Virus genome (UHGV): UHGV-1430452
From: a virus
Direction: 5' to 3' (one strand)
DNA: 64,000 nt
This document shows positions 4,438 through 50,106 of this stretch, in pieces; position 1 is the stretch's first letter, and each line of letters opens with the position of its first letter. The notes under the pieces were generated by a model. It searched no databases, was not told where the DNA came from, and saw only the letters and a program-made list of their open reading frames with translations. Both the position numbers and the translations under genes were made by a program.

Positions 4438-4511
4438 TGGACCCTCTGGGATTCGAACCCAGGACCGTCCGGTTATGAGCCGGATGCTCTAACCAACTGA
4501 ACTAAAGGTCC
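4438..4511 (-). tRNA. tRNA-Met (anticodon CAT), 74 nt, CCA not encoded
   Basis: hand-folded cloverleaf: acceptor GGACCTT/AGGGTCC, D-loop AGTTGGTTA, anticodon stem TCCGG/CCGGA with loop CTCATAA, T-loop TTCGAAT. Confidence 0.85.
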
Positions 4512-5206: not shown

Positions 5207-5713
5207 TTATTCTACTTTCTCAAACGTGTAACCTCCGCAAGTTCTCAATCTTCCTCGTAAATACTGTGACAACATACTTTGACTTATCCCAAGCGTTTTA
5301 GCACATTCGTTCAAAGATTCATATACCTCTCCGTTCTCTTTACATCTAACTTTTATTCGATTACTTCTACCACCACCATATGGTTTCATCAATCCATCTC
5401 GTATGGCGTATTGCACATTTTCTTTTCTTGTACACCATTCAAGATTATCTGCGTGGTTATTTGTTTTATCTCCATCTTTGTGATGAACATCTAGACCTGG
5501 ATAAGGTCCGCCTAGAAATGCTTCGGCCACGAGAATATTAACTCTCTTTTGAAACCCATATCCGCATCTAGATAATGTTACAGTTTTATAACCTTTGCTG
5601 TCAGTTCCTTGTTTTAGAATTCTTCTAGTATCGATATTCCTAACCTTGCCAGTATTACTAACTTCATATTGCGAACCAAAATCATGCACCGCCTCCCATT
5701 CTTCAACTTTCAT
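5207..5713 (-). CDS. HNH homing endonuclease (NUMOD4 + HNH_3-type)
   Basis: YEVSNTGKVRN and HHKDGDKTNNHADNLEW motifs. Confidence 0.8.
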   Translation of the reverse strand: MKVEEWEAVHDFGSQYEVSNTGKVRNIDTRRILKQGTDSKGYKTVTLSRCGYGFQKRVNILVAEAFLGGPYPGLDVHHKDGDKTNNHADNLEWCTRKENVQYAIRDGLMKPYGGGRSNRIKVRCKENGEVYESLNECAKTLGISQSMLSQYLRGRLRTCGGYTFEKVE

Positions 5714-7977: not shown

Positions 7978-8262
7978 TTACACATAATCGTCCTCATCTA
8001 TGTCGTCTTCATACTCAAATTCATCATTATAATCGTCACTACCAGATCCATATAACTCTTTTAAAGCTTCTTGACGTTTGTTAATACTATCGATAGATGC
8101 TTTATATGTACTGATTCTGATAAACTCCGACATAGACATTCCGCTAAGTCTAGCTGCCCTCTCTATAGACGAATACTCCTCGTCATTGCATTTAGAGAAA
8201 ATAGGTTTTCTTCTCGCTCCAAACTTCAACGGCCTCCCACGTTTCTTTTTAACTTCTTCCAT
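7978..8262 (-). CDS. ribbon-helix-helix (CopG/MobC-like) DNA-binding protein with acidic tail
   Basis: KRGRPLKFGARRKPIFSKCNDEEYSSIERAARLSGMSMSEFIR resembles RHH family; paralogs at 9504 and 12151. Confidence 0.65.
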   Translation of the reverse strand: MEEVKKKRGRPLKFGARRKPIFSKCNDEEYSSIERAARLSGMSMSEFIRISTYKASIDSINKRQEALKELYGSGSDDYNDEFEYEDDIDEDDYV

Positions 8263-9503: not shown

Positions 9504-9674
9504 TTACTTCTCTTCTTGGTACATTCTCTCTAAAGCAGTTCTAAATACATCAGCAGCACTCATACCTGTTGACTTACGAACCTTCTCTAAAATATCTAAT
9601 TCTTTCCTATTAACACGAACTAGATATCTTGTATCTCTAGGATCTGCTATCGGTTTTCTACCTCTCTTCGCCAT
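9504..9674 (-). CDS. small RHH-type protein (56 aa), paralog of 12151..12354
   Basis: translation MAKRGRKPIADPRD...TGMSAADVFRTALERMY; missed by track (<60 aa). Confidence 0.6.
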   Translation of the reverse strand: MAKRGRKPIADPRDTRYLVRVNRKELDILEKVRKSTGMSAADVFRTALERMYQEEK

Positions 9675-11966: not shown

Positions 11967-12167
11967 TCATTCCTCCTTACTTCTTCTAACTTCCATTTCT
12001 AACCCAGATTGTATCCAACATCTTCTACATTTACTCTCATCATAGCCAGTAACACCACAGTTACAGCGCTCAGATGATTGTAAATCATAATCGTATGGAC
12101 AATTAAACTCGACTAATAAATCGAGCATCGTTTCTTTCTGATTTTCATTATCAAATATCATTTTCAT
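11967..12167 (-). CDS. small Cys-containing protein (66 aa)
   Basis: co-directional ORF; start overlaps upstream stop. Confidence 0.6.
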   Translation of the reverse strand: MKMIFDNENQKETMLDLLVEFNCPYDYDLQSSERCNCGVTGYDESKCRRCWIQSGLEMEVRRSKEE

Positions 12168-12354
12168 CGTTTAACACACCTCGCTCCGATTCCTTCTCAT
12201 ATAACTTCTCCAAAGCCACTCTAAAAACATCGGCCTGTCCCATACCAGTCATCTTGCAGCAATCCTCTAGCATTTTATTTTCTTTATCATTTATACGTAT
12301 CATGTAATGTTTCTTCCTCGGGTCTTTACTATAAGGTCTCCCTCGTCTGCCCAT
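12151..12354 (-). CDS. RHH-type DNA-binding protein (67 aa), paralog of 9504..9674
   Basis: GRRGRPYSKDPRK...TGMGQADVFRVALEKLY. Confidence 0.65.
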   Translation of the reverse strand: MGRRGRPYSKDPRKKHYMIRINDKENKMLEDCCKMTGMGQADVFRVALEKLYEKESERGVLNDENDI

Positions 12355-12698: not shown

Positions 12699-13034
12699 TC
12701 AAATATCGCCTTCTTTTCTATGCTGACTCTTCTCACTGTCAAACCCATCAGGATACCTCTCCATAAGTTTGCATAAGTTAGTCTCCATAATAGTCTGAAG
12801 ATCATAACCGATAGCTTTAGCACTGATTGCCAAATACCAAGCAACATCTCCAAGCTCTTTTGCGATATGCTTTCTATCGAGTTCATGACCCTGAAACAAA
12901 TGCTTCTTGAGAATATCGATACACTCTCCGGCCTCTCCATTAAGACCCATAAGACCATTTTGAAGCTGCTCCATGTCTGTTAACTCCTGGTTTGCTGATC
13001 TCCATGCTCCATCCTGATATGCGTTAATTTCCAT
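12699..13034 (-). CDS. MazG-like nucleoside triphosphate pyrophosphohydrolase
   Basis: LNGEAGECIDILKK ... ELGDVAWYL matches the EExxE/ELGD MazG motifs. Confidence 0.75.
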   Translation of the reverse strand: MEINAYQDGAWRSANQELTDMEQLQNGLMGLNGEAGECIDILKKHLFQGHELDRKHIAKELGDVAWYLAISAKAIGYDLQTIMETNLCKLMERYPDGFDSEKSQHRKEGDI

Positions 13035-13133
13035 TTCTTTCTTTCTCCTTTTCTTATGCTATAATTATTTCGGATAAATAGACAAAACCCCTAGAAACGC
13101 CGTATAAAGCGTCACAGGGGCATTCTTAGAGGG

Positions 13134-13625
13134 TTAATCGCACCACAACACAATCTGTCCAAGTTCTCTAGTTCTCTTTACATCTATAACTCTTTGATTT
13201 GAGCTTCCTCTCCATTTCAACTGTACATCTCTGAGTTTCTCGACATACGGTCCGTCTACCAAAACATCAATGTACTCCATAACCGGTAGATCTTTAACCG
13301 CTTCATATGTATATCCGGTGTAAAGCCAGATCGTTTTGTTTGGGAAAGATGCTTTTACTATTTCGCATAGTGTCAAAATATCCCATCGGTTTCCTTCAAA
13401 CAACGGATCTCCACCCGATAAAGTCAAACCGGAAATATAATCTTCATCGAGTAGATCTTCGAGTTCCTCCCAAGCATTTCCATCAAACAACAATCCATCA
13501 TCAGGGTTCCAAGTAACAGGATTCTGACATCCAGGGCATTCATGATCGCAGCCGGCAACCCATAGGACTACACGAAGACCGTCTCCGTTTTTCATATCGT
13601 CTTTCGTAATATCATGGTATCTCAT
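13134..13625 (-). CDS. nrdG: radical-SAM activating enzyme, NrdG-like (anaerobic ribonucleotide reductase activase family)
   Basis: GDGLRVVLWVAGCDHECPGCQNPVTW with CxxxCxxC cluster and downstream LSGGDPLF. Confidence 0.75.
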   Translation of the reverse strand: MRYHDITKDDMKNGDGLRVVLWVAGCDHECPGCQNPVTWNPDDGLLFDGNAWEELEDLLDEDYISGLTLSGGDPLFEGNRWDILTLCEIVKASFPNKTIWLYTGYTYEAVKDLPVMEYIDVLVDGPYVEKLRDVQLKWRGSSNQRVIDVKRTRELGQIVLWCD

Positions 13626-13660
13626 TTACTATCACCTCCATCATTCAGTTTCACATTTGT

Positions 13661-13900
13661 TTATATATTCCATTCGTCAAGATCATCCTCGTTATTATCA
13701 ATAGCTTTCTTTGCCTCAGCAGTTGATGCCTTGATATGACGATAAATAACTTTGCTAATAACCGCAACGACTAAAACTGGCCATATAGCTATGAGAATCA
13801 ATGATTTAGGCTCTTCTGGATCTTTCTTAGCGACCTCATCAATAAGAGAACCCATACAAAAATATAACAATGCAGCACAAAACCATTCAAAACCTGTCAT
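13661..13900 (-). CDS. small membrane protein (79 aa)
   Basis: two hydrophobic segments. Confidence 0.6.
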   Translation of the reverse strand: MTGFEWFCAALLYFCMGSLIDEVAKKDPEEPKSLILIAIWPVLVVAVISKVIYRHIKASTAEAKKAIDNNEDDLDEWNI

Positions 13901-13913
13901 AATATCTCCTTTC

Positions 13914-14237
13914 TTAATCTACACATTTAACTTCGATGCCTGTCTCTTCTTCAAGTTCGCGGAAATAATCTTCCATTGTTTTACTTCCGTCTTCGATAGC
14001 GCCCATAAGCTCGTCAACGTACTCTAATGTCTTAGCGATACGCTTACTTCCGAATTTATGAATCCTATGTTCAGCCAGTGCGAAACAAGACATCAGGGCC
14101 TCCGTACTAAATGTGGAAGCCCTATCTGAAATATCTTTCTTGATCTTAGCAAGTTCATACTTGTCGATCACGACCTGATTTTTCTTGTTCTCAATCCTTT
14201 CTAATCGTTCGCGCATTCTCCTTTCAGCACGTCCCAT
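13914..14237 (-). CDS. hypothetical protein (107 aa)
   Basis: co-directional ORF. Confidence 0.65.
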   Translation of the reverse strand: MGRAERRMRERLERIENKKNQVVIDKYELAKIKKDISDRASTFSTEALMSCFALAEHRIHKFGSKRIAKTLEYVDELMGAIEDGSKTMEDYFRELEEETGIEVKCVD

Positions 14238-14241
14238 ACTT

Positions 14242-14511
14242 TTAATCCTCCTTTAAAAACGTATCTTCAAACTCCAAATCAGGCATAAAATTAGCGCATA
14301 TACTATCGTAGCGATAATCATAAAACTCGATCTCACTAACGAATATGAATATGCGCCCATCTTTTAAATAAATTATTCGTTCGGATACGTGTAACTCAGC
14401 AATGTCTTGTGCAATGTCACTCTTAGTCATAAACCGTTCAAATATATTTTGTGCCATCCGGTTGGTTCTTGATATTATTATGTATAAATTAGTATTTGGT
14501 TTTTCTGACAT
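14242..14511 (-). CDS. hypothetical protein (89 aa)
   Basis: co-directional ORF. Confidence 0.65.
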   Translation of the reverse strand: MSEKPNTNLYIIISRTNRMAQNIFERFMTKSDIAQDIAELHVSERIIYLKDGRIFIFVSEIEFYDYRYDSICANFMPDLEFEDTFLKED

Positions 14512-14674
14512 TATTTGATCCTTTCAATGCGTAGGGAGTACGATCAAACCATTTTCTAGCTTTCGAATAGTTTTCCTTTTCTCGCCCTAAACTTTCACAT
14601 CTAGAATATTCAGCGTGTTTATTGAAACCTATCACTTTCTTAGAATGGCTTTTGTCCACATCCACATATCTCAT
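14489..14674 (-). CDS. hypothetical protein (61 aa)
   Basis: co-directional ORF. Confidence 0.55.
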   Translation of the reverse strand: MRYVDVDKSHSKKVIGFNKHAEYSRCESLGREKENYSKARKWFDRTPYALKGSNNVRKTKY

Positions 14675-14829
14675 TTCTTTTTCTCCTTGTAATATACAGG
14701 TTTATGAGAGTTAAGATTTGTCGGTTCATCGAGACAATCAAAACACGGATCTTCCCATTCTTCTTTATCCTCATGTCGGCACGATTTACAATACTCAAAA
14801 TAAACCTCTTTTTCATCATTTGGCCGCAT
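14671..14829 (-). CDS. small Cys-rich protein (52 aa), zinc-ribbon-like
   Basis: missed by track; CxxC...CxxC; SD GGAGGAAA; ATGA overlap with next gene. Confidence 0.5.
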   Translation of the reverse strand: MRPNDEKEVYFEYCKSCRHEDKEEWEDPCFDCLDEPTNLNSHKPVYYKEKKK

Positions 14830-14861
14830 CTCGGTTTCCTCCTTTCTAAAAAAGAGAAGCC

Positions 14862-15023
14862 CTAATTGGACTCCTTTTGAGTTACTTCATTCTTTTCGGT
14901 GCTATTCTTTTCTTCGTTTTTGTTACGTTTCCCGCTCGCCATATTCAACGCAAATATAACAGTGGAAACAATACCTGCAATGTAGCTCAGTACGATAATC
15001 GCTAAAATCTCTGTGAATGCCAT
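14862..15023 (-). CDS. small membrane protein (53 aa)
   Basis: missed by track; SD AGGAGG; hydrophobic N-terminus. Confidence 0.5.
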   Translation of the reverse strand: MAFTEILAIIVLSYIAGIVSTVIFALNMASGKRNKNEEKNSTEKNEVTQKESN

Positions 15024-15026
15024 AAT

Positions 15027-15707
15027 TTAATCCTCCTTTTTAGATCCGGTGATAAGTTCTGAATATGGAAGAGTTTCGATCCATCTACAGAATTCTCTCC
15101 ACTCATCGAGCTTGTGGTTTTTTCTCTGGTGATACATGGCTGCCAGGACTTCATAATTGAGCATAACAGTACGTTTCTGGTTATAGCTGCTCGGAAGAAG
15201 CTGAATCATCTGCCACCAACAGCCTTTGTCTTTAGATTTTAAATAAGATTCACGGCACCAGTTTAACTGCTCTATTGTGGTATTAAGAACGGATAATGAT
15301 GCTTTGCATAAATGTTCACAACTAAAATCCTCCAGCGTAAATTCCTTCGCATGAATCTTGTGCATAGTTGAGCAAGAGTTAGCAACAGTACCGATTTTAT
15401 AAGTATCGAACTCCTTCCACCAATACAAAGGCGCTGTAATATCCACATACACAGTAATCATCCGCATAAATTTACGATGCTCTGTACCAGCGTTCCGAAG
15501 TCTTTTCATAAGGTCGAGGTCGTTTGGCCCGATTATAAAACGGCATGTATTACCGCACCAATCCGGTTTGAAACCACACGATTTACAAAGACCAGTATCG
15601 CATCCGTTACTACTATCACTCTTCTCCCAACTATTCATCGGATTCCGCATACCTCTAATGGCAGCTTCCCATCCCATAACTTCTACATTCTCAATTTTAA
15701 TACTCAT
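15027..15707 (-). CDS. Cys-rich protein (226 aa); tentative ThyX-like fold lacking the canonical RHR motif
   Basis: N-terminal VEVMGWEAAIRGMRNPMNS and ITVYVDITAPLYWW loosely resemble ThyX blocks; recalled alignment only. Confidence 0.6.
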   Translation of the reverse strand: MSIKIENVEVMGWEAAIRGMRNPMNSWEKSDSSNGCDTGLCKSCGFKPDWCGNTCRFIIGPNDLDLMKRLRNAGTEHRKFMRMITVYVDITAPLYWWKEFDTYKIGTVANSCSTMHKIHAKEFTLEDFSCEHLCKASLSVLNTTIEQLNWCRESYLKSKDKGCWWQMIQLLPSSYNQKRTVMLNYEVLAAMYHQRKNHKLDEWREFCRWIETLPYSELITGSKKED

Positions 15708-15719
15708 AATTTAATCCTC

Positions 15720-16463
15720 CTATTCAAGCCAATTGTTATCTAAATAATAAAATCCAATTACACAAGCGATAATTAACACAATCCATACTACCCAAAAGAA
15801 TATAAGCCACCCGTTTCCGTATTTTAATGTCTCGTACGTTTCATCAATGCTCATATTGTTATAGAAATTAGTGTTATCAGGTATGGTTCCGTCTTTTAAC
15901 CTGGCAAATATAGTTCCTTTGAATTTGGTTGGTGTACCATAATACTTATATCGAACGTCACTAGATTCCTTAAGGGTATCGATATAATCCGGTGATGGAA
16001 TATTGATTTTACTAGACGGAAAAGTAACACCACAAAATATCAATTCTTTGCAGGTCTTATCCTCGCTTCCAACCCTATCCCATGTCCAGTAGTACTCTGT
16101 TCTTGTATGTGTGGTTCTATTTTTGCCAGAACCGGTAGTATAAGTGACAATTCGAGTATGCATTGTATATCGCTCTTTCACTTTTTCGACATACATATAT
16201 TTTCCGTCTATTTCCGGATAAGTAACCGTGTCAACAGCTTTTAGATTTCCATTCACAAAAGCGTTTCCGACATTGGTCCTCATACCATACTCGAATATAT
16301 CGGACTCTTTGATTTTTACTGCTTTGTTGTAGATCTCATTCTTATCCATTTGGTGCTCCGAAATCTTACTAGAAATCAGAACACCAATAAGTAATAGAAT
16401 GGCTATAATAGAAATACTGGCTAACACTTCCCTTTTAGTTATTTCAATATCATAGTCTCCCAT
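15720..16463 (-). CDS. membrane protein (247 aa), TM helices at both ends; partner of LemA
   Basis: hydrophobic ends; immediately downstream of LemA gene. Confidence 0.65.
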   Translation of the reverse strand: MGDYDIEITKREVLASISIIAILLLIGVLISSKISEHQMDKNEIYNKAVKIKESDIFEYGMRTNVGNAFVNGNLKAVDTVTYPEIDGKYMYVEKVKERYTMHTRIVTYTTGSGKNRTTHTRTEYYWTWDRVGSEDKTCKELIFCGVTFPSSKINIPSPDYIDTLKESSDVRYKYYGTPTKFKGTIFARLKDGTIPDNTNFYNNMSIDETYETLKYGNGWLIFFWVVWIVLIIACVIGFYYLDNNWLE

Positions 16464-16468
16464 ATTAT

Positions 16469-17023
16469 TTACTCCTTGAATAAATCCTGCGGTGCGTCAA
16501 CTGGAGCATCATAATCCAAATATGTATAATCTTGTGTCTCGTATCCTAATAAACTTAAAAATGTTCTTGTCGGGAATTTACGTACATAGCGATTGTATTC
16601 TTTTATCTGCTTATTATAGTTACTACGATATTCCGCGATAAGATTCTCTGTAATAGATAATTCATTCATTAGTTCTTTATAGTTTGAATCTGACTTCAAC
16701 TCAGGATATGCTTCAGATACTGCGGTAATAGCTGTCGTCACATTCTCAATGTCTCCTGTTTTACCTCGGCCTTCCACAATTGACTTAAGAGTCTCTGCTT
16801 CGTGTTTATCGTACTGCTTCACACAATCTGCCAGATTCATAACGAGATCTACTCTTCGTTTTTCCTGAACCTTGATATCAGAATCAGCACTGTTTACTTG
16901 TTCTTCTAGAGCAATTGCTTTGTTCTGAGAACTCTGGACTACAAATACACCTAATAAAATAACTGCCAGAATACCAGCAGCTACGATTAACATTACCTTC
17001 CAATTTTTATTATTTCCTTTCAT
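16469..17023 (-). CDS. lemA: LemA family protein
   Basis: N-terminal TM then RRVDLVMNL...EAYPELKSDSNYKELMNELSITENLIAEYRSNYN matches LemA; likely start at internal ATG (17023), not the TTG used by the track. Confidence 0.75.
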   Translation of the reverse strand: MKGNNKNWKVMLIVAAGILAVILLGVFVVQSSQNKAIALEEQVNSADSDIKVQEKRRVDLVMNLADCVKQYDKHEAETLKSIVEGRGKTGDIENVTTAITAVSEAYPELKSDSNYKELMNELSITENLIAEYRSNYNKQIKEYNRYVRKFPTRTFLSLLGYETQDYTYLDYDAPVDAPQDLFKE

Positions 17024-17199
17024 TTTTTGATCTCCTTTTCTAAATATTTTTTGATTTCTTCGCAACGTTCTGCATGTTTACAAGTAATGTCTGTATTAGT
17101 GCAATATCTACCCATATCGCATTCCAATTCAGCTTTACTAACATACGGATCGAAGTCAGGACAATTATGACAATAATCCTCCACGAATAATTTGATCAT
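17020..17199 (-). CDS. small Cys-rich protein (59 aa)
   Basis: missed by track; multiple Cys pairs; TGA/ATG overlap with lemA. Confidence 0.45.
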   Translation of the reverse strand: MIKLFVEDYCHNCPDFDPYVSKAELECDMGRYCTNTDITCKHAERCEEIKKYLEKEIKK

Positions 17200-21524: not shown

Positions 21525-21998
21525 TTAAATATAGTCCAATATGTTTCCATCCACATTGAAGTCTAATAATGCCGTATTCTTATAACCATTGATAAAATCG
21601 AAATTACATTCATTCATTAAACCAAAATCTACGAAATTGTCTCCAATAGGATTCTCCTCGTCATAAACCCAGCCAACAACTGCTCCTGCTTTTGTTCTCG
21701 GAATGCCTAACGTATCGTAGACATCATTCAGAAATAAATGTCCTCTTGATCTCAGCAAAACATTACAATATTTCTGCTGATCTTTCAAAAAGTTCATATT
21801 ATACTCTGGATCTTTAATCCACCCAATACAGCTATCATCGAAAAACCTAGCATATTGACTAAAGTTTTCGGTTTTGTCAACCCTGTTTCCTGGATACTCT
21901 TCTTCTGATTTCAGATTGAATAATTTCTTTAATTCCTCATCATCAATTTCAATAGTTACATTAATCTTCATAATTATTCTCCTTTCAAATATAAACAT
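21525..21998 (-). CDS. hypothetical protein (157 aa) sharing a ~110-aa domain with the C-terminus of 44029..44967
   Basis: FFDDSCIGWIKDPEYNMNFLKDQQKY...GDNFVDFG...LLDFNVDGNIL aligns by eye with 44029 C-terminus. Confidence 0.7.
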   Translation of the reverse strand: MFIFERRIIMKINVTIEIDDEELKKLFNLKSEEEYPGNRVDKTENFSQYARFFDDSCIGWIKDPEYNMNFLKDQQKYCNVLLRSRGHLFLNDVYDTLGIPRTKAGAVVGWVYDEENPIGDNFVDFGLMNECNFDFINGYKNTALLDFNVDGNILDYI

Positions 21999-44028: not shown

Positions 44029-44967
44029 TCAAATCATGTTGAGAATATCCCCATCCACATTGAAATCAAGAAGAATAGTTCTCTCATAACCGTTCACGAA
44101 GTTACGATTTGCCTCGTTGTAAGTGTTATAGATTCCGAAATCTACGAAATTATCACCTACTGGATGTTTCTCGTCATAAATCCATCCAACAATCTGACCT
44201 GCCTGTGTACGCGGGATTCCGAGCATATCATATACTTCATTCAGGAACAGATGACCTTTCGTTTTCAACATGTCATTTGCATAACGCTGCTGATCTTTAA
44301 GGAACATTAGATTGAATTCAGGATCTTTAGTCCATCCTGTACATCCATCATCGAAGAATTTAGCATAATCGCTGTAACTGTCGAGAGTTGCTACATTTGC
44401 TGTTTTCTTAACAGTAGTTTCTGTACCATCTTCATTTACAACAGTCTCTTCGATTTCTTTTGCTTTGATGTTGTACTTCAGTTCTTTATCAAGCTCTTCA
44501 CCAAATCTCTCAATAACACGACCACGATATTCCTTGAAGCCTTTGTCAATAGTTGCATAAGCGGCTGCAAGTGCTAAGTTACGTTTACGAAGAATATGAT
44601 GACCACTAAGAATAGCAGCGATAGAAACTGTTCCAAGGATTACTGCTGGAGCATAAAGTTTTGCTACCTTTACGGCTGTTTGAGTATACATGATAGTTAA
44701 ATCTTTCTTACCATCTTCTTCTGTGTACTCTTTACCTTCTGGAACCATATCTGGATTTTCCATAAATTCATGAATTTTCTCGATTTTTTCTTTTGGCTCA
44801 GCGAGCACCTCATCGAGTTTAGTAGTTGCTTTACATGCCATTACAGCAGAGCCAACTACACCAACAATACCTGCGCCAACCAAGATTTCAGGGCTATGCT
44901 TTTTAAATTTAAAACCTACACGATGGAGGCTTCTAGTTACTGTGTTCATAATTTCTAATTTTGCCAT
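44029..44967 (-). CDS. two-TM-anchored modular protein (312 aa), paralog family A (N-terminal domain shared with 47042 and 49330; C-terminal domain shared with 21525)
   Basis: N-terminal ...PEILVGAGIVGVVGSAVMACKAT... and C-terminal FFDDGCTGWTKDPEFNLMFLKDQQRY blocks. Confidence 0.75.
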   Translation of the reverse strand: MAKLEIMNTVTRSLHRVGFKFKKHSPEILVGAGIVGVVGSAVMACKATTKLDEVLAEPKEKIEKIHEFMENPDMVPEGKEYTEEDGKKDLTIMYTQTAVKVAKLYAPAVILGTVSIAAILSGHHILRKRNLALAAAYATIDKGFKEYRGRVIERFGEELDKELKYNIKAKEIEETVVNEDGTETTVKKTANVATLDSYSDYAKFFDDGCTGWTKDPEFNLMFLKDQQRYANDMLKTKGHLFLNEVYDMLGIPRTQAGQIVGWIYDEKHPVGDNFVDFGIYNTYNEANRNFVNGYERTILLDFNVDGDILNMI

Positions 44968-47041: not shown

Positions 47042-47869
47042 TTAATAGTAGCTATCGAAACCATATTCCGGAGGCATCAGATGATCAATAACAATACACG
47101 GTTCATTATCTTCCGTAATTTGAGCACTATATCTCACATCGATTTTGCCTTTATCGATTCTCCAACCGATGCTATTACCAACTTCGGTATGCTTAAGACC
47201 AATTTCGTCATAGAAATCATTCAGAGAAATATACATCTCGTTACCGTTGATCATTCTCTCATTAAGAGTAAGAACAGCATTTTTAATCTTGTCGATATCC
47301 GATCTGAAATATCTGTCGGAATGACTGTCATAACACAACGTGTTACCTTTACCTGTCATGATAATCTGAGTGTCTGCAACCGGATGTTCTTCAACTTGCT
47401 TCTTAGCGACTTTATCTCTGATGTTATTTTCCTTCTTCTCTCCGATAGTCTCTACCACTTTCTCTCTGTAGTCAGACAGTGCTGTTGTAGATAACTGATA
47501 TGCTGTTGCCAATGCTGCGTTACGTCTTACATGTACGGAATTAGCACCGATAAGACAAGCGACTGACGCAATGCCAGTGATAGCTGCTGGAATATAAGGT
47601 TTCCAAGCTGCTTTTACTGTTTCGACAGGTGTGAGATTTAAAGCGTTTCTTTCGTCTTCTTCTGTGAAAATACCGCCTTCATGAGCTTCTTTCTCTTTAA
47701 ACTTCTTCTCTTCCTCGATTAACTCCATAGCTTTTGGTGTTGCTTTTACTGCAAGCACAACAGTAGATATCATACCTGCGATACCAATGCCAGTAAGAAT
47801 TTCCGGACTGCGTTTTTTCATTACATATTTTGCAGTGTTTAAAAATTTTGTTACATTTGGTTTGTTCAT
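47042..47869 (-). CDS. two-TM-anchored modular protein, paralog family A (275 aa)
   Basis: N-terminal domain aligns with 44029 and 49330. Confidence 0.75.
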   Translation of the reverse strand: MNKPNVTKFLNTAKYVMKKRSPEILTGIGIAGMISTVVLAVKATPKAMELIEEEKKFKEKEAHEGGIFTEEDERNALNLTPVETVKAAWKPYIPAAITGIASVACLIGANSVHVRRNAALATAYQLSTTALSDYREKVVETIGEKKENNIRDKVAKKQVEEHPVADTQIIMTGKGNTLCYDSHSDRYFRSDIDKIKNAVLTLNERMINGNEMYISLNDFYDEIGLKHTEVGNSIGWRIDKGKIDVRYSAQITEDNEPCIVIDHLMPPEYGFDSYY

Positions 47870-47957: not shown

Positions 47958-48029
47958 AGAAACAGTGTAGGACTCGAACCCACAACCTACAGATATAAGT
48001 CTGTTGCTCTACCAATTGAGCTAACTGTT
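47958..48029 (-). tRNA. tRNA with atypical anticodon loop, probable anticodon TAT (Ile)
   Basis: acceptor AAACAGT/ACTGTTT, D-arm GCTC-AATTGGTA-GAGC, T-loop TTCGAGT; anticodon stem ACAG/CTGT with loop containing CTTATAT (6 or 8 nt by hand). Confidence 0.6.
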
Positions 48030-48034
48030 TCTTC

Positions 48035-49140: not shown

Positions 49141-49349
49141 GTGTAATGGATATGCTCATTGTTTAATTCGTCGAGATGTTTAATAAAATCTAAATATCTT
49201 TTATTTCGTCTATTCTCCACAAAGTTTATAACTAACCAAGCAATCCCTACGATAGGCAAGCCAACGAATACTAATAGAAATAGTAAGCATGTAATCATAG
49301 AAACAAGCGTATTCATAAATCTTCTCCTTTCAATACTCTTCGTAATCAA
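49134..49349 (-). CDS. small membrane protein (71 aa)
   Basis: two hydrophobic segments; track start may overextend into the motif. Confidence 0.55.
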   Translation of the reverse strand: MITKSIERRRFMNTLVSMITCLLFLLVFVGLPIVGIAWLVINFVENRRNKRYLDFIKHLDELNNEHIHYTR

Positions 49350-50106
49350 TGAACGGCTCTGTGAAATCTACAATATAACATTCAATACCGTCGTCCATTT
49401 CTACTTTTGTATGGTGGAAATATAGCCAACCATCCCAGTACATTTCATACATCTGAGCTGCGGACCAACCCATAAATTCACCGTAATCCTGTCGATCAAT
49501 CTCTAGTAAATCGTAATAATCGTTTAAAGATGCACCACCGGATTGAGATAGCATTTTATTAATCTCATACTCTGCTCTCAATTGAGTTTCTTTCGTCACA
49601 CGGTAATAACGTTTGGAATATTCATCGTAGAATAGTGTTTTGCCATCCTCGTATTCGTCGTCATATTCTTCTTTGTCTTCTTCCTCGTAATGGTCTTTTG
49701 CTACAGCAGCACGAATGAGTTTGTCTCCGTCTTCACCATATAACTTTTTAACTTTGTTTTTGTACTCTTTGTGAGTTTGGTCTAGTAAGGCATAAGCAGA
49801 TGCGATGGCTGCTTGGGAATGTTTGTTTAATAGATTCGCGCCAAATATGCAAGCTAGGGTTCCTGTTCCAATCAATAAGGAAGGAATATATGTTGGTCCT
49901 GCTACTCGAATAGTCTCCCATTTTGTTAATTCATCTCCTTTCTCTTCTTCAGCTAGTTCAATAAGTTCCATTGCTTTCGGAGTAGCTTTAACCGCCATTA
50001 CAGCTGTACCTACCACTCCGGCAGCTCCTAATACTGTTAATATAGTAGAGCTGTTTTTCTTTACGAATCTTTTCGAAACTGTTAGTAAGTCATTCATTTC
50101 CAGCAC
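49330..50106 (-). CDS. two-TM-anchored modular protein, paralog family A (258 aa)
   Basis: N-terminal domain aligns with 44029 and 47042. Confidence 0.75.
   Translation of the reverse strand: MLEMNDLLTVSKRFVKKNSSTILTVLGAAGVVGTAVMAVKATPKAMELIELAEEEKGDELTKWETIRVAGPTYIPSLLIGTGTLACIFGANLLNKHSQAAIASAYALLDQTHKEYKNKVKKLYGEDGDKLIRAAVAKDHYEEEDKEEYDDEYEDGKTLFYDEYSKRYYRVTKETQLRAEYEINKMLSQSGGASLNDYYDLLEIDRQDYGEFMGWSAAQMYEMYWDGWLYFHHTKVEMDDGIECYIVDFTEPFIDYEEY

Follow-up and report, generated by a model that had tools for sequence, protein, structure and literature searches.

What does a phage do with the activase of a class III ribonucleotide reductase (RNR) when the reductase itself, NrdD, is not encoded beside it? 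This question is raised by the virus genome UHGV-1430452, of which we analysed a stretch of 64,000 nucleotides (the window, whose numbering is used below). A first-pass annotation, made from the letters of the window alone, had noticed at 12,699 to 15,707 a cluster of an NrdG-like radical S-adenosylmethionine (SAM) protein, a MazG-like protein and a Cys-rich protein loosely resembling the thymidylate synthase ThyX. The three open reading frames (ORFs) of this cluster were real and had been placed correctly (lengths in amino acids, aa):

12699..13034, minus strand: MazG-type all-alpha nucleoside triphosphate (NTP) pyrophosphohydrolase, 111 aa, from Pfam and PHROG matches
13134..13625, minus strand: nrdG, class III RNR activase, radical SAM protein, 163 aa, intact
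15027..15707, minus strand: ThyX-fold protein, 226 aa, phrog_6721 (function unknown), from a PHROG match and the predicted fold

We give a probability of about 0.45 to the reading that the region is a nucleotide-supply module within the early/replication block of a temperate siphophage infecting a strictly anaerobic gut bacterium of the Clostridium class. Comparison of gene neighbourhoods showed that in related phages the genes of this module travel together, usually with nrdD.

The activase, the pyrophosphohydrolase and the missing reductase

Profile and motif searches showed the 163-aa protein to be a bona fide, intact NrdG activase. It scored 179.9 bits against the NrdG equivalog model TIGR02491 (curated cutoff 126.1), matched phrog_626 at 5e-58 and was 50.7% identical to T4 NrdG. 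Both motifs were intact, with CDHECPGC at residue 26 as the CxxxCxxC [4Fe-4S] motif and GGDP at residue 71 as the GGEP-type SAM motif. QueE, which the first-pass annotation had named as the alternative to NrdG, was rejected: because the NrdG cutoff was passed and the QueE models gave only about 17 bits (TIGR03365, 17.1 against a cutoff of 206.1; TIGR03963, 17.2 against 260.1), we identify the protein as NrdG. The 111-aa protein was shown in the same way to be a MazG-type NTP pyrophosphohydrolase, in agreement with its first assignment. It scored 34.3 bits against Pfam MazG (PF03819, gathering threshold 22), matched phrog_229 at 5e-42 and contains the acidic metal-binding motifs EAGE (34-37) and ELGD (60-63). 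PDB sequence searches gave nothing useful for either protein or for the ThyX-fold protein. The MazG and NrdG proteins are ordinary members of known families.

A tblastn search with T4-type NrdD gave no match in the window, and the absence of the reductase from the window therefore stands as first described. NrdD was likewise missing from about 17 kb beyond the window, comprising about 10 kb of tail genes and the complete tape-measure gene, which was reached by an exact-match scan. MT835485, a relative whose NrdG is 73% identical, has no NrdD anywhere in its 70.6 kb record. None of the real ORFs contained the glycyl-radical motif R[VITA][CSAT]G[YFW], which leaves the activase without another candidate substrate in the window, and a phage-encoded alternative glycyl-radical substrate (YfiD/GrcA-like) was rejected. 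No QueC, QueD or DpdA-type/TGT domain is on record anywhere in the window; with QueE also ruled out, the 7-deazaguanine branch of an earlier suggestion of DNA base modification is unsupported.

Loci carrying a member of the ThyX-fold family were collected from viruses (80 loci) and from species-representative bacterial genomes (80 loci), with up to 10 kb on either side of the family member. nrdD was adjacent to nrdG in most NrdG-bearing loci (17 of 21 and 15 of 18). nrdG without nrdD recurred in L029, L038, L060, L160, L166, L187, L188 and contigs of ~275 kb, and L188 had the same arrangement as the window module. An nrdD nearby, which was not found for this phage, is thus often present beside nrdG in the close relatives of the module; for this reason the orphan state, judged from its neighbours, is a derived and recurrent condition and not the rule. 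The closest NrdG relatives in a large protein collection (64-95% identity) were on phage-like contigs, and in all three of their contexts that were inspected, among them L188 and the ~275 kb contigs, nrdD was absent within 5-8 kb.

The orphan copies fell into two clades, one comprising the window and MT835485 and the other L029, L038 and L060. All copies of both clades were 163 aa long with intact motifs and had diverged to 55-75% identity, and the ratio of nonsynonymous to synonymous substitution rates (dN/dS) was 0.01-0.2 where dS was unsaturated. L089 and L091, which are 99% identical on both flanks, provide a natural snapshot of nrdD loss: L091 has a clean 2.2 kb deletion (L089 7460-9586 compared with L091 9160-9600), with nrdD gone and nrdG truncated by its last ~30 codons. 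Loss of nrdD occurs, and the intact orphan copies of nrdG are those that were retained.

An NrdG 65% identical to that of the window was seen at 5001-5501 of L185 and L186, on contigs of ~265-281 kb with no nrdD within 5 kb. These contigs also carry a reverse transcriptase, an HNH endonuclease and a CHAP lysin and probably belong to a jumbo gut phage.

The ThyX-fold family and its pocket

The 226-aa protein matched phrog_6721 only, with nothing in Pfam (even at E <= 10), NCBIfam or PDB sequences. It belongs to a very large, unannotated family: it has words in common with no fewer than 8000 clusters at 90% identity, and a profile search gave 4826 representatives at 50% identity. Structure prediction (monomer, no ligands) gave a ThyX-type fold, at 11-18% identity to ThyX (PF02511; T. 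maritima TM0449, 1O26, and H. pylori, 3AH5). Of the Pfam families, Thy1 (PF02511) alone was matched by over two of the 64 diverse members searched (6 of them, the best at 3e-4), and a ThyX hidden Markov model (HMM) built here aligned several members (best 3e-5). Profile-profile alignment with hhalign was collinear with ThyX from end to end but not significant (E 0.08), and hhalign from a shallow alignment or a single ThyX sequence was unsuccessful. The residue register was identical in the Pfam matches, the ThyX HMM and the profile-profile alignment. The ThyX-like resemblance noted at first was therefore supported by the predicted fold and the Thy1 matches of relatives, but not by the profile-profile score; in sequence the link to ThyX is weak but specific, and the case for homology is built on the fold together with the weak HMM matches of relatives. 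The Cys-rich stretch was likewise only partly upheld. Four Cys residues are present at residues ~33-56, but they lie in an insertion after the first helix whose length and sequence vary across the family and which is absent in many members, and it was rejected as a conserved metal site.

After the sequence and residue numbering of T. maritima ThyX had been confirmed from PDB entries and the point mutants among them, we located in the family the equivalents of 23 positions that are invariant in ThyX and measured conservation over 125 representatives. In ThyX, the RHR motif and the equivalents of Ser/Thr55 and Arg165 hold the phosphates and ribityl of flavin adenine dinucleotide (FAD), and RHR also holds the isoalloxazine (PMC6514825). 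Deoxyuridine monophosphate (dUMP) is held by the first Arg of RHR, by the equivalent of Arg174 and by two residues of the S-x-R-Y loop, its Ser and its Arg, and the Tyr of this loop serves as a lid (PMC6514825).

The absence of the RHR motif was confirmed, T102-Y103-K104 being in its place (R78 to T102, 92% T; H79 to Y103, 98% Y; R80 to K104, 84% K). The second-subunit FAD contacts T55 and R165 were replaced by K79 (93%) and E186 (82%). Part of the dUMP cage was retained (S88 as S113, 97%; R174 as R195, 94%) and part was replaced (R90 by M115, Y91 by H116, R147 by Q169). E58, E86 and Q75 were replaced by R82, S111 and E99, respectively. H53 (H77), N85 (N110), N163 (N184), H178 (H198) and E182 (E202) were also kept, and N169 was kept as N190 in most members but was A in the window protein. 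As the replaced residues hold FAD and dUMP in ThyX (PMC6514825), the canonical FAD anchor is, on this mapping, gone and the dUMP cage half kept.

The residues now found at the replaced pocket positions were themselves 82-98% conserved. An alignment of members at 28-35% identity (MT835485, L187, L188, phiCTP1 gp68, PMBT24 and phiCD211 gp73) had an invariant core of G74, H77, W97, Y103, S111, S113, H116, P172, R195, H198, E202 and Y215. Such conservation points to a functional pocket with changed specificity or chemistry and not to a decayed enzyme. The family thus differs from ThyX both in these residues and in the variable Cys-rich insertion, and canonical FAD anchoring is not expected in it. 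It also differs from PolB (polyoxin UMP/dUMP C5-methylase, 4P5A), which is recognisably ThyX by sequence (phmmer 3.7e-34 to TM0449), whereas the phage family is not.

Gene linkage, a proposed pathway and its rivals

Among the 160 ThyX-fold loci, MazG was present in 54, NrdG in 39 and NrdD in 38, and canonical ThyA or ThyX in none. The genes occurred in at least three orders (ThyX-fold, MazG, NrdD, NrdG; MazG, NrdG, NrdD, ThyX-fold; and ThyX-fold, NrdG, NrdD, MazG), and linkage was kept where the ThyX-fold protein was only ~30% identical to that of the window (L187, L188 and MT835485). MazG was present in 31 of the 45 loci with RNR genes and in 23 of the 115 without (odds ratio 8.9, Fisher p 1.5e-8, relatedness of the loci uncorrected). 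MazG and deoxyuridine triphosphate (dUTP) pyrophosphatase (dUTPase) showed no overlap (54 loci and 8-11 loci, respectively), and since the two never co-occurred, their distribution fits the same role for both. When the neighbours of the ThyX-fold gene were clustered without bias, its most frequent companions were a helicase, the 52-aa protein with four Cys, a nuclease-like protein and MazG.

The complete genome of PMBT24, a virulent Enterocloster phage, encodes NrdD, NrdG, dUTPase and its own replisome, with a deoxynucleoside monophosphate (dNMP) kinase two genes from the ThyX-fold gene, and lacks ThyA and canonical ThyX. Because of this gene content, the ThyX-fold family is seen to occupy the pathway place expected of a thymidylate synthase. 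In phiCD211 and phiCTP1, the ThyX-fold gene is among replisome and recombination genes. The first-pass annotation had offered nucleotide supply or base modification as the role of the cluster. The recurrence of these genes as a module across relatives supports nucleotide supply; a pyrimidine modification made by the ThyX-fold protein is improbable, nothing positive speaking for it.

Cultured phages with a ThyX-fold family member infect Clostridium, Enterocloster, Clostridioides, Fusobacterium and Desulfovibrio, and the family is carried by prophages of Eubacterium ramulus, Hungatella hathewayi, Moryella indoligenes, Lachnospira hominis, Yeguia hominis and numerous Oscillospiraceae and Lachnospiraceae. 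All of these known hosts and prophage carriers are strict anaerobes, and strict anaerobes rely on the class III reductase. We propose that the phage has dispensed with its own nrdD and that its NrdG places the glycyl radical on the host class III NrdD, which would raise the flux from NTP to deoxynucleoside triphosphate (dNTP) during replication; this step, the activation of host NrdD with a higher dNTP output, is probable. Class III reductases reduce triphosphates and so yield dNTPs directly, dUTP included. MazG would then hydrolyse dUTP, and possibly deoxycytidine triphosphate (dCTP), to the monophosphate, thereby excluding uracil from DNA and feeding the pyrimidine branch; we consider the chances of this second step to be even. 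In the third and least certain step, put forward tentatively, the ThyX-fold protein might bind the pyrimidine dNMP so formed through the retained equivalents of S88 and R174 and convert it, with thymidine monophosphate (dTMP) or a related C5-substituted nucleotide as the likeliest product. Its chemistry would be unlike that of flavin-dependent ThyX, because the FAD-phosphate anchors (RHR, T55 and R165) and also the dUMP-cage residues (R90, Y91 and R147) are replaced. In their place the family has a conserved set of Y103, S111, H116, K79, R82 and E186.

The combination of a pyrophosphatase, a thymidylate synthase (TS)-like protein and an RNR parallels dNTP synthesis in T4 (gp56 dCTPase/dUTPase, gp42/td and gp1). 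The likeness to T4 NrdD/NrdG extends to the 51% identity of NrdG and to relatives of the module that carry MazG, NrdD and NrdG as an operon-like block. In contrast to T4, the window module has no nrdD, its TS-like part has the ThyX and not the ThyA fold, and no dNMP kinase is in the window. Many phages carry nrdD without nrdG (Dwivedi et al., 2013, PMC3653736); there, too, the class III pair is split, with one partner encoded by the phage and the other presumably by the host, whereas the window phage shows the converse split and has the activase only. That survey kept nrdG matches only beside other RNR genes (PMC3653736), and an orphan nrdG was therefore invisible to it, stand-alone copies being excluded by its filtering rule. 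ThyA-fold homologs (dCMP/dUMP hydroxymethylases and 5-hydroxy-dCMP synthase, dCMP being deoxycytidine monophosphate; PMC13326640) are phage-encoded TS relatives whose substrate or chemistry has been redirected, by changes in the active site, at the mononucleotide stage, but their fold is unrelated to that of the phage protein described here.

Several points weigh against nucleotide supply as the role of the cluster. Five of the six arginines (R78, R80, R90, R147 and R165), H79 and Y91 are lost and only R174 is kept; as all of these are invariant in real ThyX, the losses argue against thymidylate synthesis by any known mechanism. Homology to ThyX is itself without a significant profile-profile alignment. 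The co-occurrence statistics ignore the relatedness of the loci, and all of the genes lie in a generally syntenic early region. The ThyX-fold gene was found without MazG in 66% of loci and without RNR genes in ~72%, and hence does not depend on either. The nrdD loss in L091 truncated nrdG too, so decay does happen. The part of the genome that lies upstream of the tape-measure gene, about 15 kb, is unread, although an nrdD there is unlikely, as this is the side on which head and packaging genes are expected.

The last two points bear on the possibility that the orphan nrdG does not work with a host NrdD, being either a functionless leftover of an nrdD deletion or the partner of an nrdD in the unread part. 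The fresh deletion that separates L091 from L089 and the presence of nrdD beside nrdG in most related modules are in keeping with this possibility. We nevertheless consider it improbable, since the window nrdG is full length, has all its motifs and passes the equivalog cutoff, since orphan copies in two clades are still intact under the dN/dS values given above, and since MT835485, which is syntenic over the early region, has no nrdD anywhere in its record. A less remote alternative, which we still think unlikely, is that the ThyX-fold protein is a non-synthetic ligand-binding or regulatory protein built on the ThyX scaffold (for example one that senses or soaks up nucleotides, or one that binds or inhibits a host protein), so that its linkage to MazG and NrdDG merely reflects a common early-gene location. 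Such a role would agree with the loss of most residues essential to ThyX catalysis, with the two thirds of loci that lack MazG or RNR genes and with the setting of the gene in phiCD211 and phiCTP1. However, the strong conservation of the replaced positions and a core of His, Ser, Arg and Glu that is invariant down to 28% identity fit a catalytic site better than a scaffold, and the gene stays linked to those of MazG and RNR despite rearrangement and deep divergence. Comparison with the PADLOC defence library gave no significant match for any of the cluster proteins, and none with a known defence or anti-defence family.

Pyrimidine base modification would use the same genes differently: MazG would supply the dNMP in the manner of the T4 gp56 dCTPase/dUTPase, the ThyX-fold protein would install a C5 group other than methyl or act on dCMP, and the modified base would allow the phage DNA to evade restriction. 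A MazG-like pyrophosphatase, a TS-like enzyme and a dNMP kinase match known pre-replicative modification pathways, and PMBT24 has its dNMP kinase near the ThyX-fold gene. The uracil-recognising R90 and the Y91 lid are replaced, as is Q75 (by E99), and ThyA-fold homologs have diversified into hydroxymethylases and 5-hydroxy-dCMP synthases (PMC13326640; PMC8989533). This explanation, too, appears improbable. Genes for a dNMP kinase, a glycosyltransferase, a DNA polymerase or any other downstream modification step are absent from the window. The phage is temperate and members of the family are frequent in prophages, which are copied as part of the unmodified DNA of the host, and no base modification has been reported for PMBT24.

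A bolder reading, which we regard as rather doubtful, is that the ThyX-fold proteins of thousands of phages and prophages of anaerobic gut bacteria form a new class of enzymes for pyrimidine nucleotides, without the canonical FAD site, and that stand-alone phage NrdG activases alongside them take over the anaerobic RNR of the host. The invariant cluster of His77, His116, His198 and Glu202 may be a metal site or the site of an alternative cofactor, and the product would be dTMP or a modified pyrimidine, made by chemistry not seen in ThyA or ThyX. To our knowledge, thymidylate synthesis exists in only two forms, ThyA and ThyX. If the reading is true, a third, very abundant family derived from ThyX and present in a substantial fraction of the temperate phages that infect human-gut Clostridia would represent a new route to DNA precursors or a new enzyme of DNA modification. 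With an orphan activase, a phage might boost an oxygen-sensitive host enzyme at little cost. Literature searches gave no ThyX-fold counterpart of the ThyA homologs with altered chemistry, no description of a ThyX-fold family with a re-tooled pocket and none of an orphan phage nrdG. What is new is this family, with its altered pocket and its association with the genes of the anaerobic reductase, and the recurrent, selected orphan activase. Cultured systems exist in PMBT24 on Enterocloster bolteae and in prophages of Hungatella hathewayi DSM 13479 and Eubacterium ramulus.

Genome setting and neighbouring genes

The window makes up the final 64 kb of a ~96.5 kb phage genome that has been recovered repeatedly in human-gut metagenomes. 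Two independently assembled contigs (96,507 bp and 81,861 bp) each terminate precisely at window position 1, which suggests a physical genome end or a terminal repeat. Almost all genes of the window are on the minus strand. The exceptions, at 56-58 kb, are one gene resembling a repressor and one for a large serine recombinase, and because of these two genes the phage is regarded as temperate. The early/replication region within the window includes a DUF5906 primase-helicase (1408 aa), a single-stranded DNA-binding protein (SSB), a helicase and many small ORFs. Domain records and searches of the window gave no DNA polymerase, ThyA, canonical ThyX, dUTPase or NrdD. Megablast of the cluster region against phage records gave zero matches. 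Synteny between MT835485 and the window extends from the integrase across the genes of the primase-helicase, helicase and NrdG to the ThyX-fold gene.

Between the ThyX-fold gene and nrdG, the cluster contains the following smaller ORFs:

14862..15023, minus strand: 53-aa ORF immediately downstream of the ThyX-fold gene, one membrane helix predicted
14671..14829, minus strand: 52-aa CxxC-x11-CxxC protein, phrog_19852, in 60 of 160 related loci
13661..14674, minus strand: four small ORFs of 61, 89, 107 and 79 aa, between the gene of the 52-aa Cys protein and nrdG

The 53-aa ORF has a homolog at the same position in L188, and the 79-aa ORF has a membrane helix. Among the four small ORFs, only the 107-aa ORF had detectable relatives (phrog_38149, MT835485 and L187). 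The distance and position of the gene for the 52-aa four-Cys protein relative to the ThyX-fold gene vary among related loci, and it was on this ground rejected as a dedicated partner of the ThyX-fold protein. Terminator-like hairpins, found by a consensus scan only, lie at 14875-14855, overlapping the end of the 53-aa ORF, and at 12427-12398. These hairpins suggest two transcription units, of which one would include the ThyX-fold gene and end behind the small ORF that follows it, and the other would run from the 52-aa gene through nrdG, mazG and the following ORF.

Directly upstream of the ThyX-fold gene, in 15720-17065 on the minus strand, is a pair formed by a LemA-family gene (16469-17065) and a gene whose 247-aa product (phrog_3886) has membrane helices at its N and C termini. 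The likely true start of the LemA-family protein gives 184 aa, and its PHROG label 'virion structural protein' looks doubtful. The pair recurred in 6-7 loci of each 80-locus set. The metagenome contig L004 (1-1140) has an identical cluster and differs upstream of an 87-aa gene (window ~23.4 kb), where it carries an opposite-strand gene with an FTCD_C (folate cyclodeaminase-type) domain; this stretch could be a moron, a variant or an assembly junction.

Elsewhere in the window, ARAGORN called a tRNA-Met and a tRNA-like gene with an abnormal two-base anticodon loop ('ta') at 47958-48031 and 4438-4511, both on the minus strand. Three paralogous small proteins of ribbon-helix-helix-like type are encoded on the minus strand at 12151-12354, 9510-9674 and 8101-8244, the latter two being 51% and 29% identical to the first. 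Four paralogous DUF6353 genes are dispersed in the early region (21525-21998, 44029-44967, 47042-47869 and 49330-50106, minus strand), and two NUMOD4/HNH homing-endonuclease-like genes (5207-5713, minus strand, and its neighbour) lie toward the end of this region.

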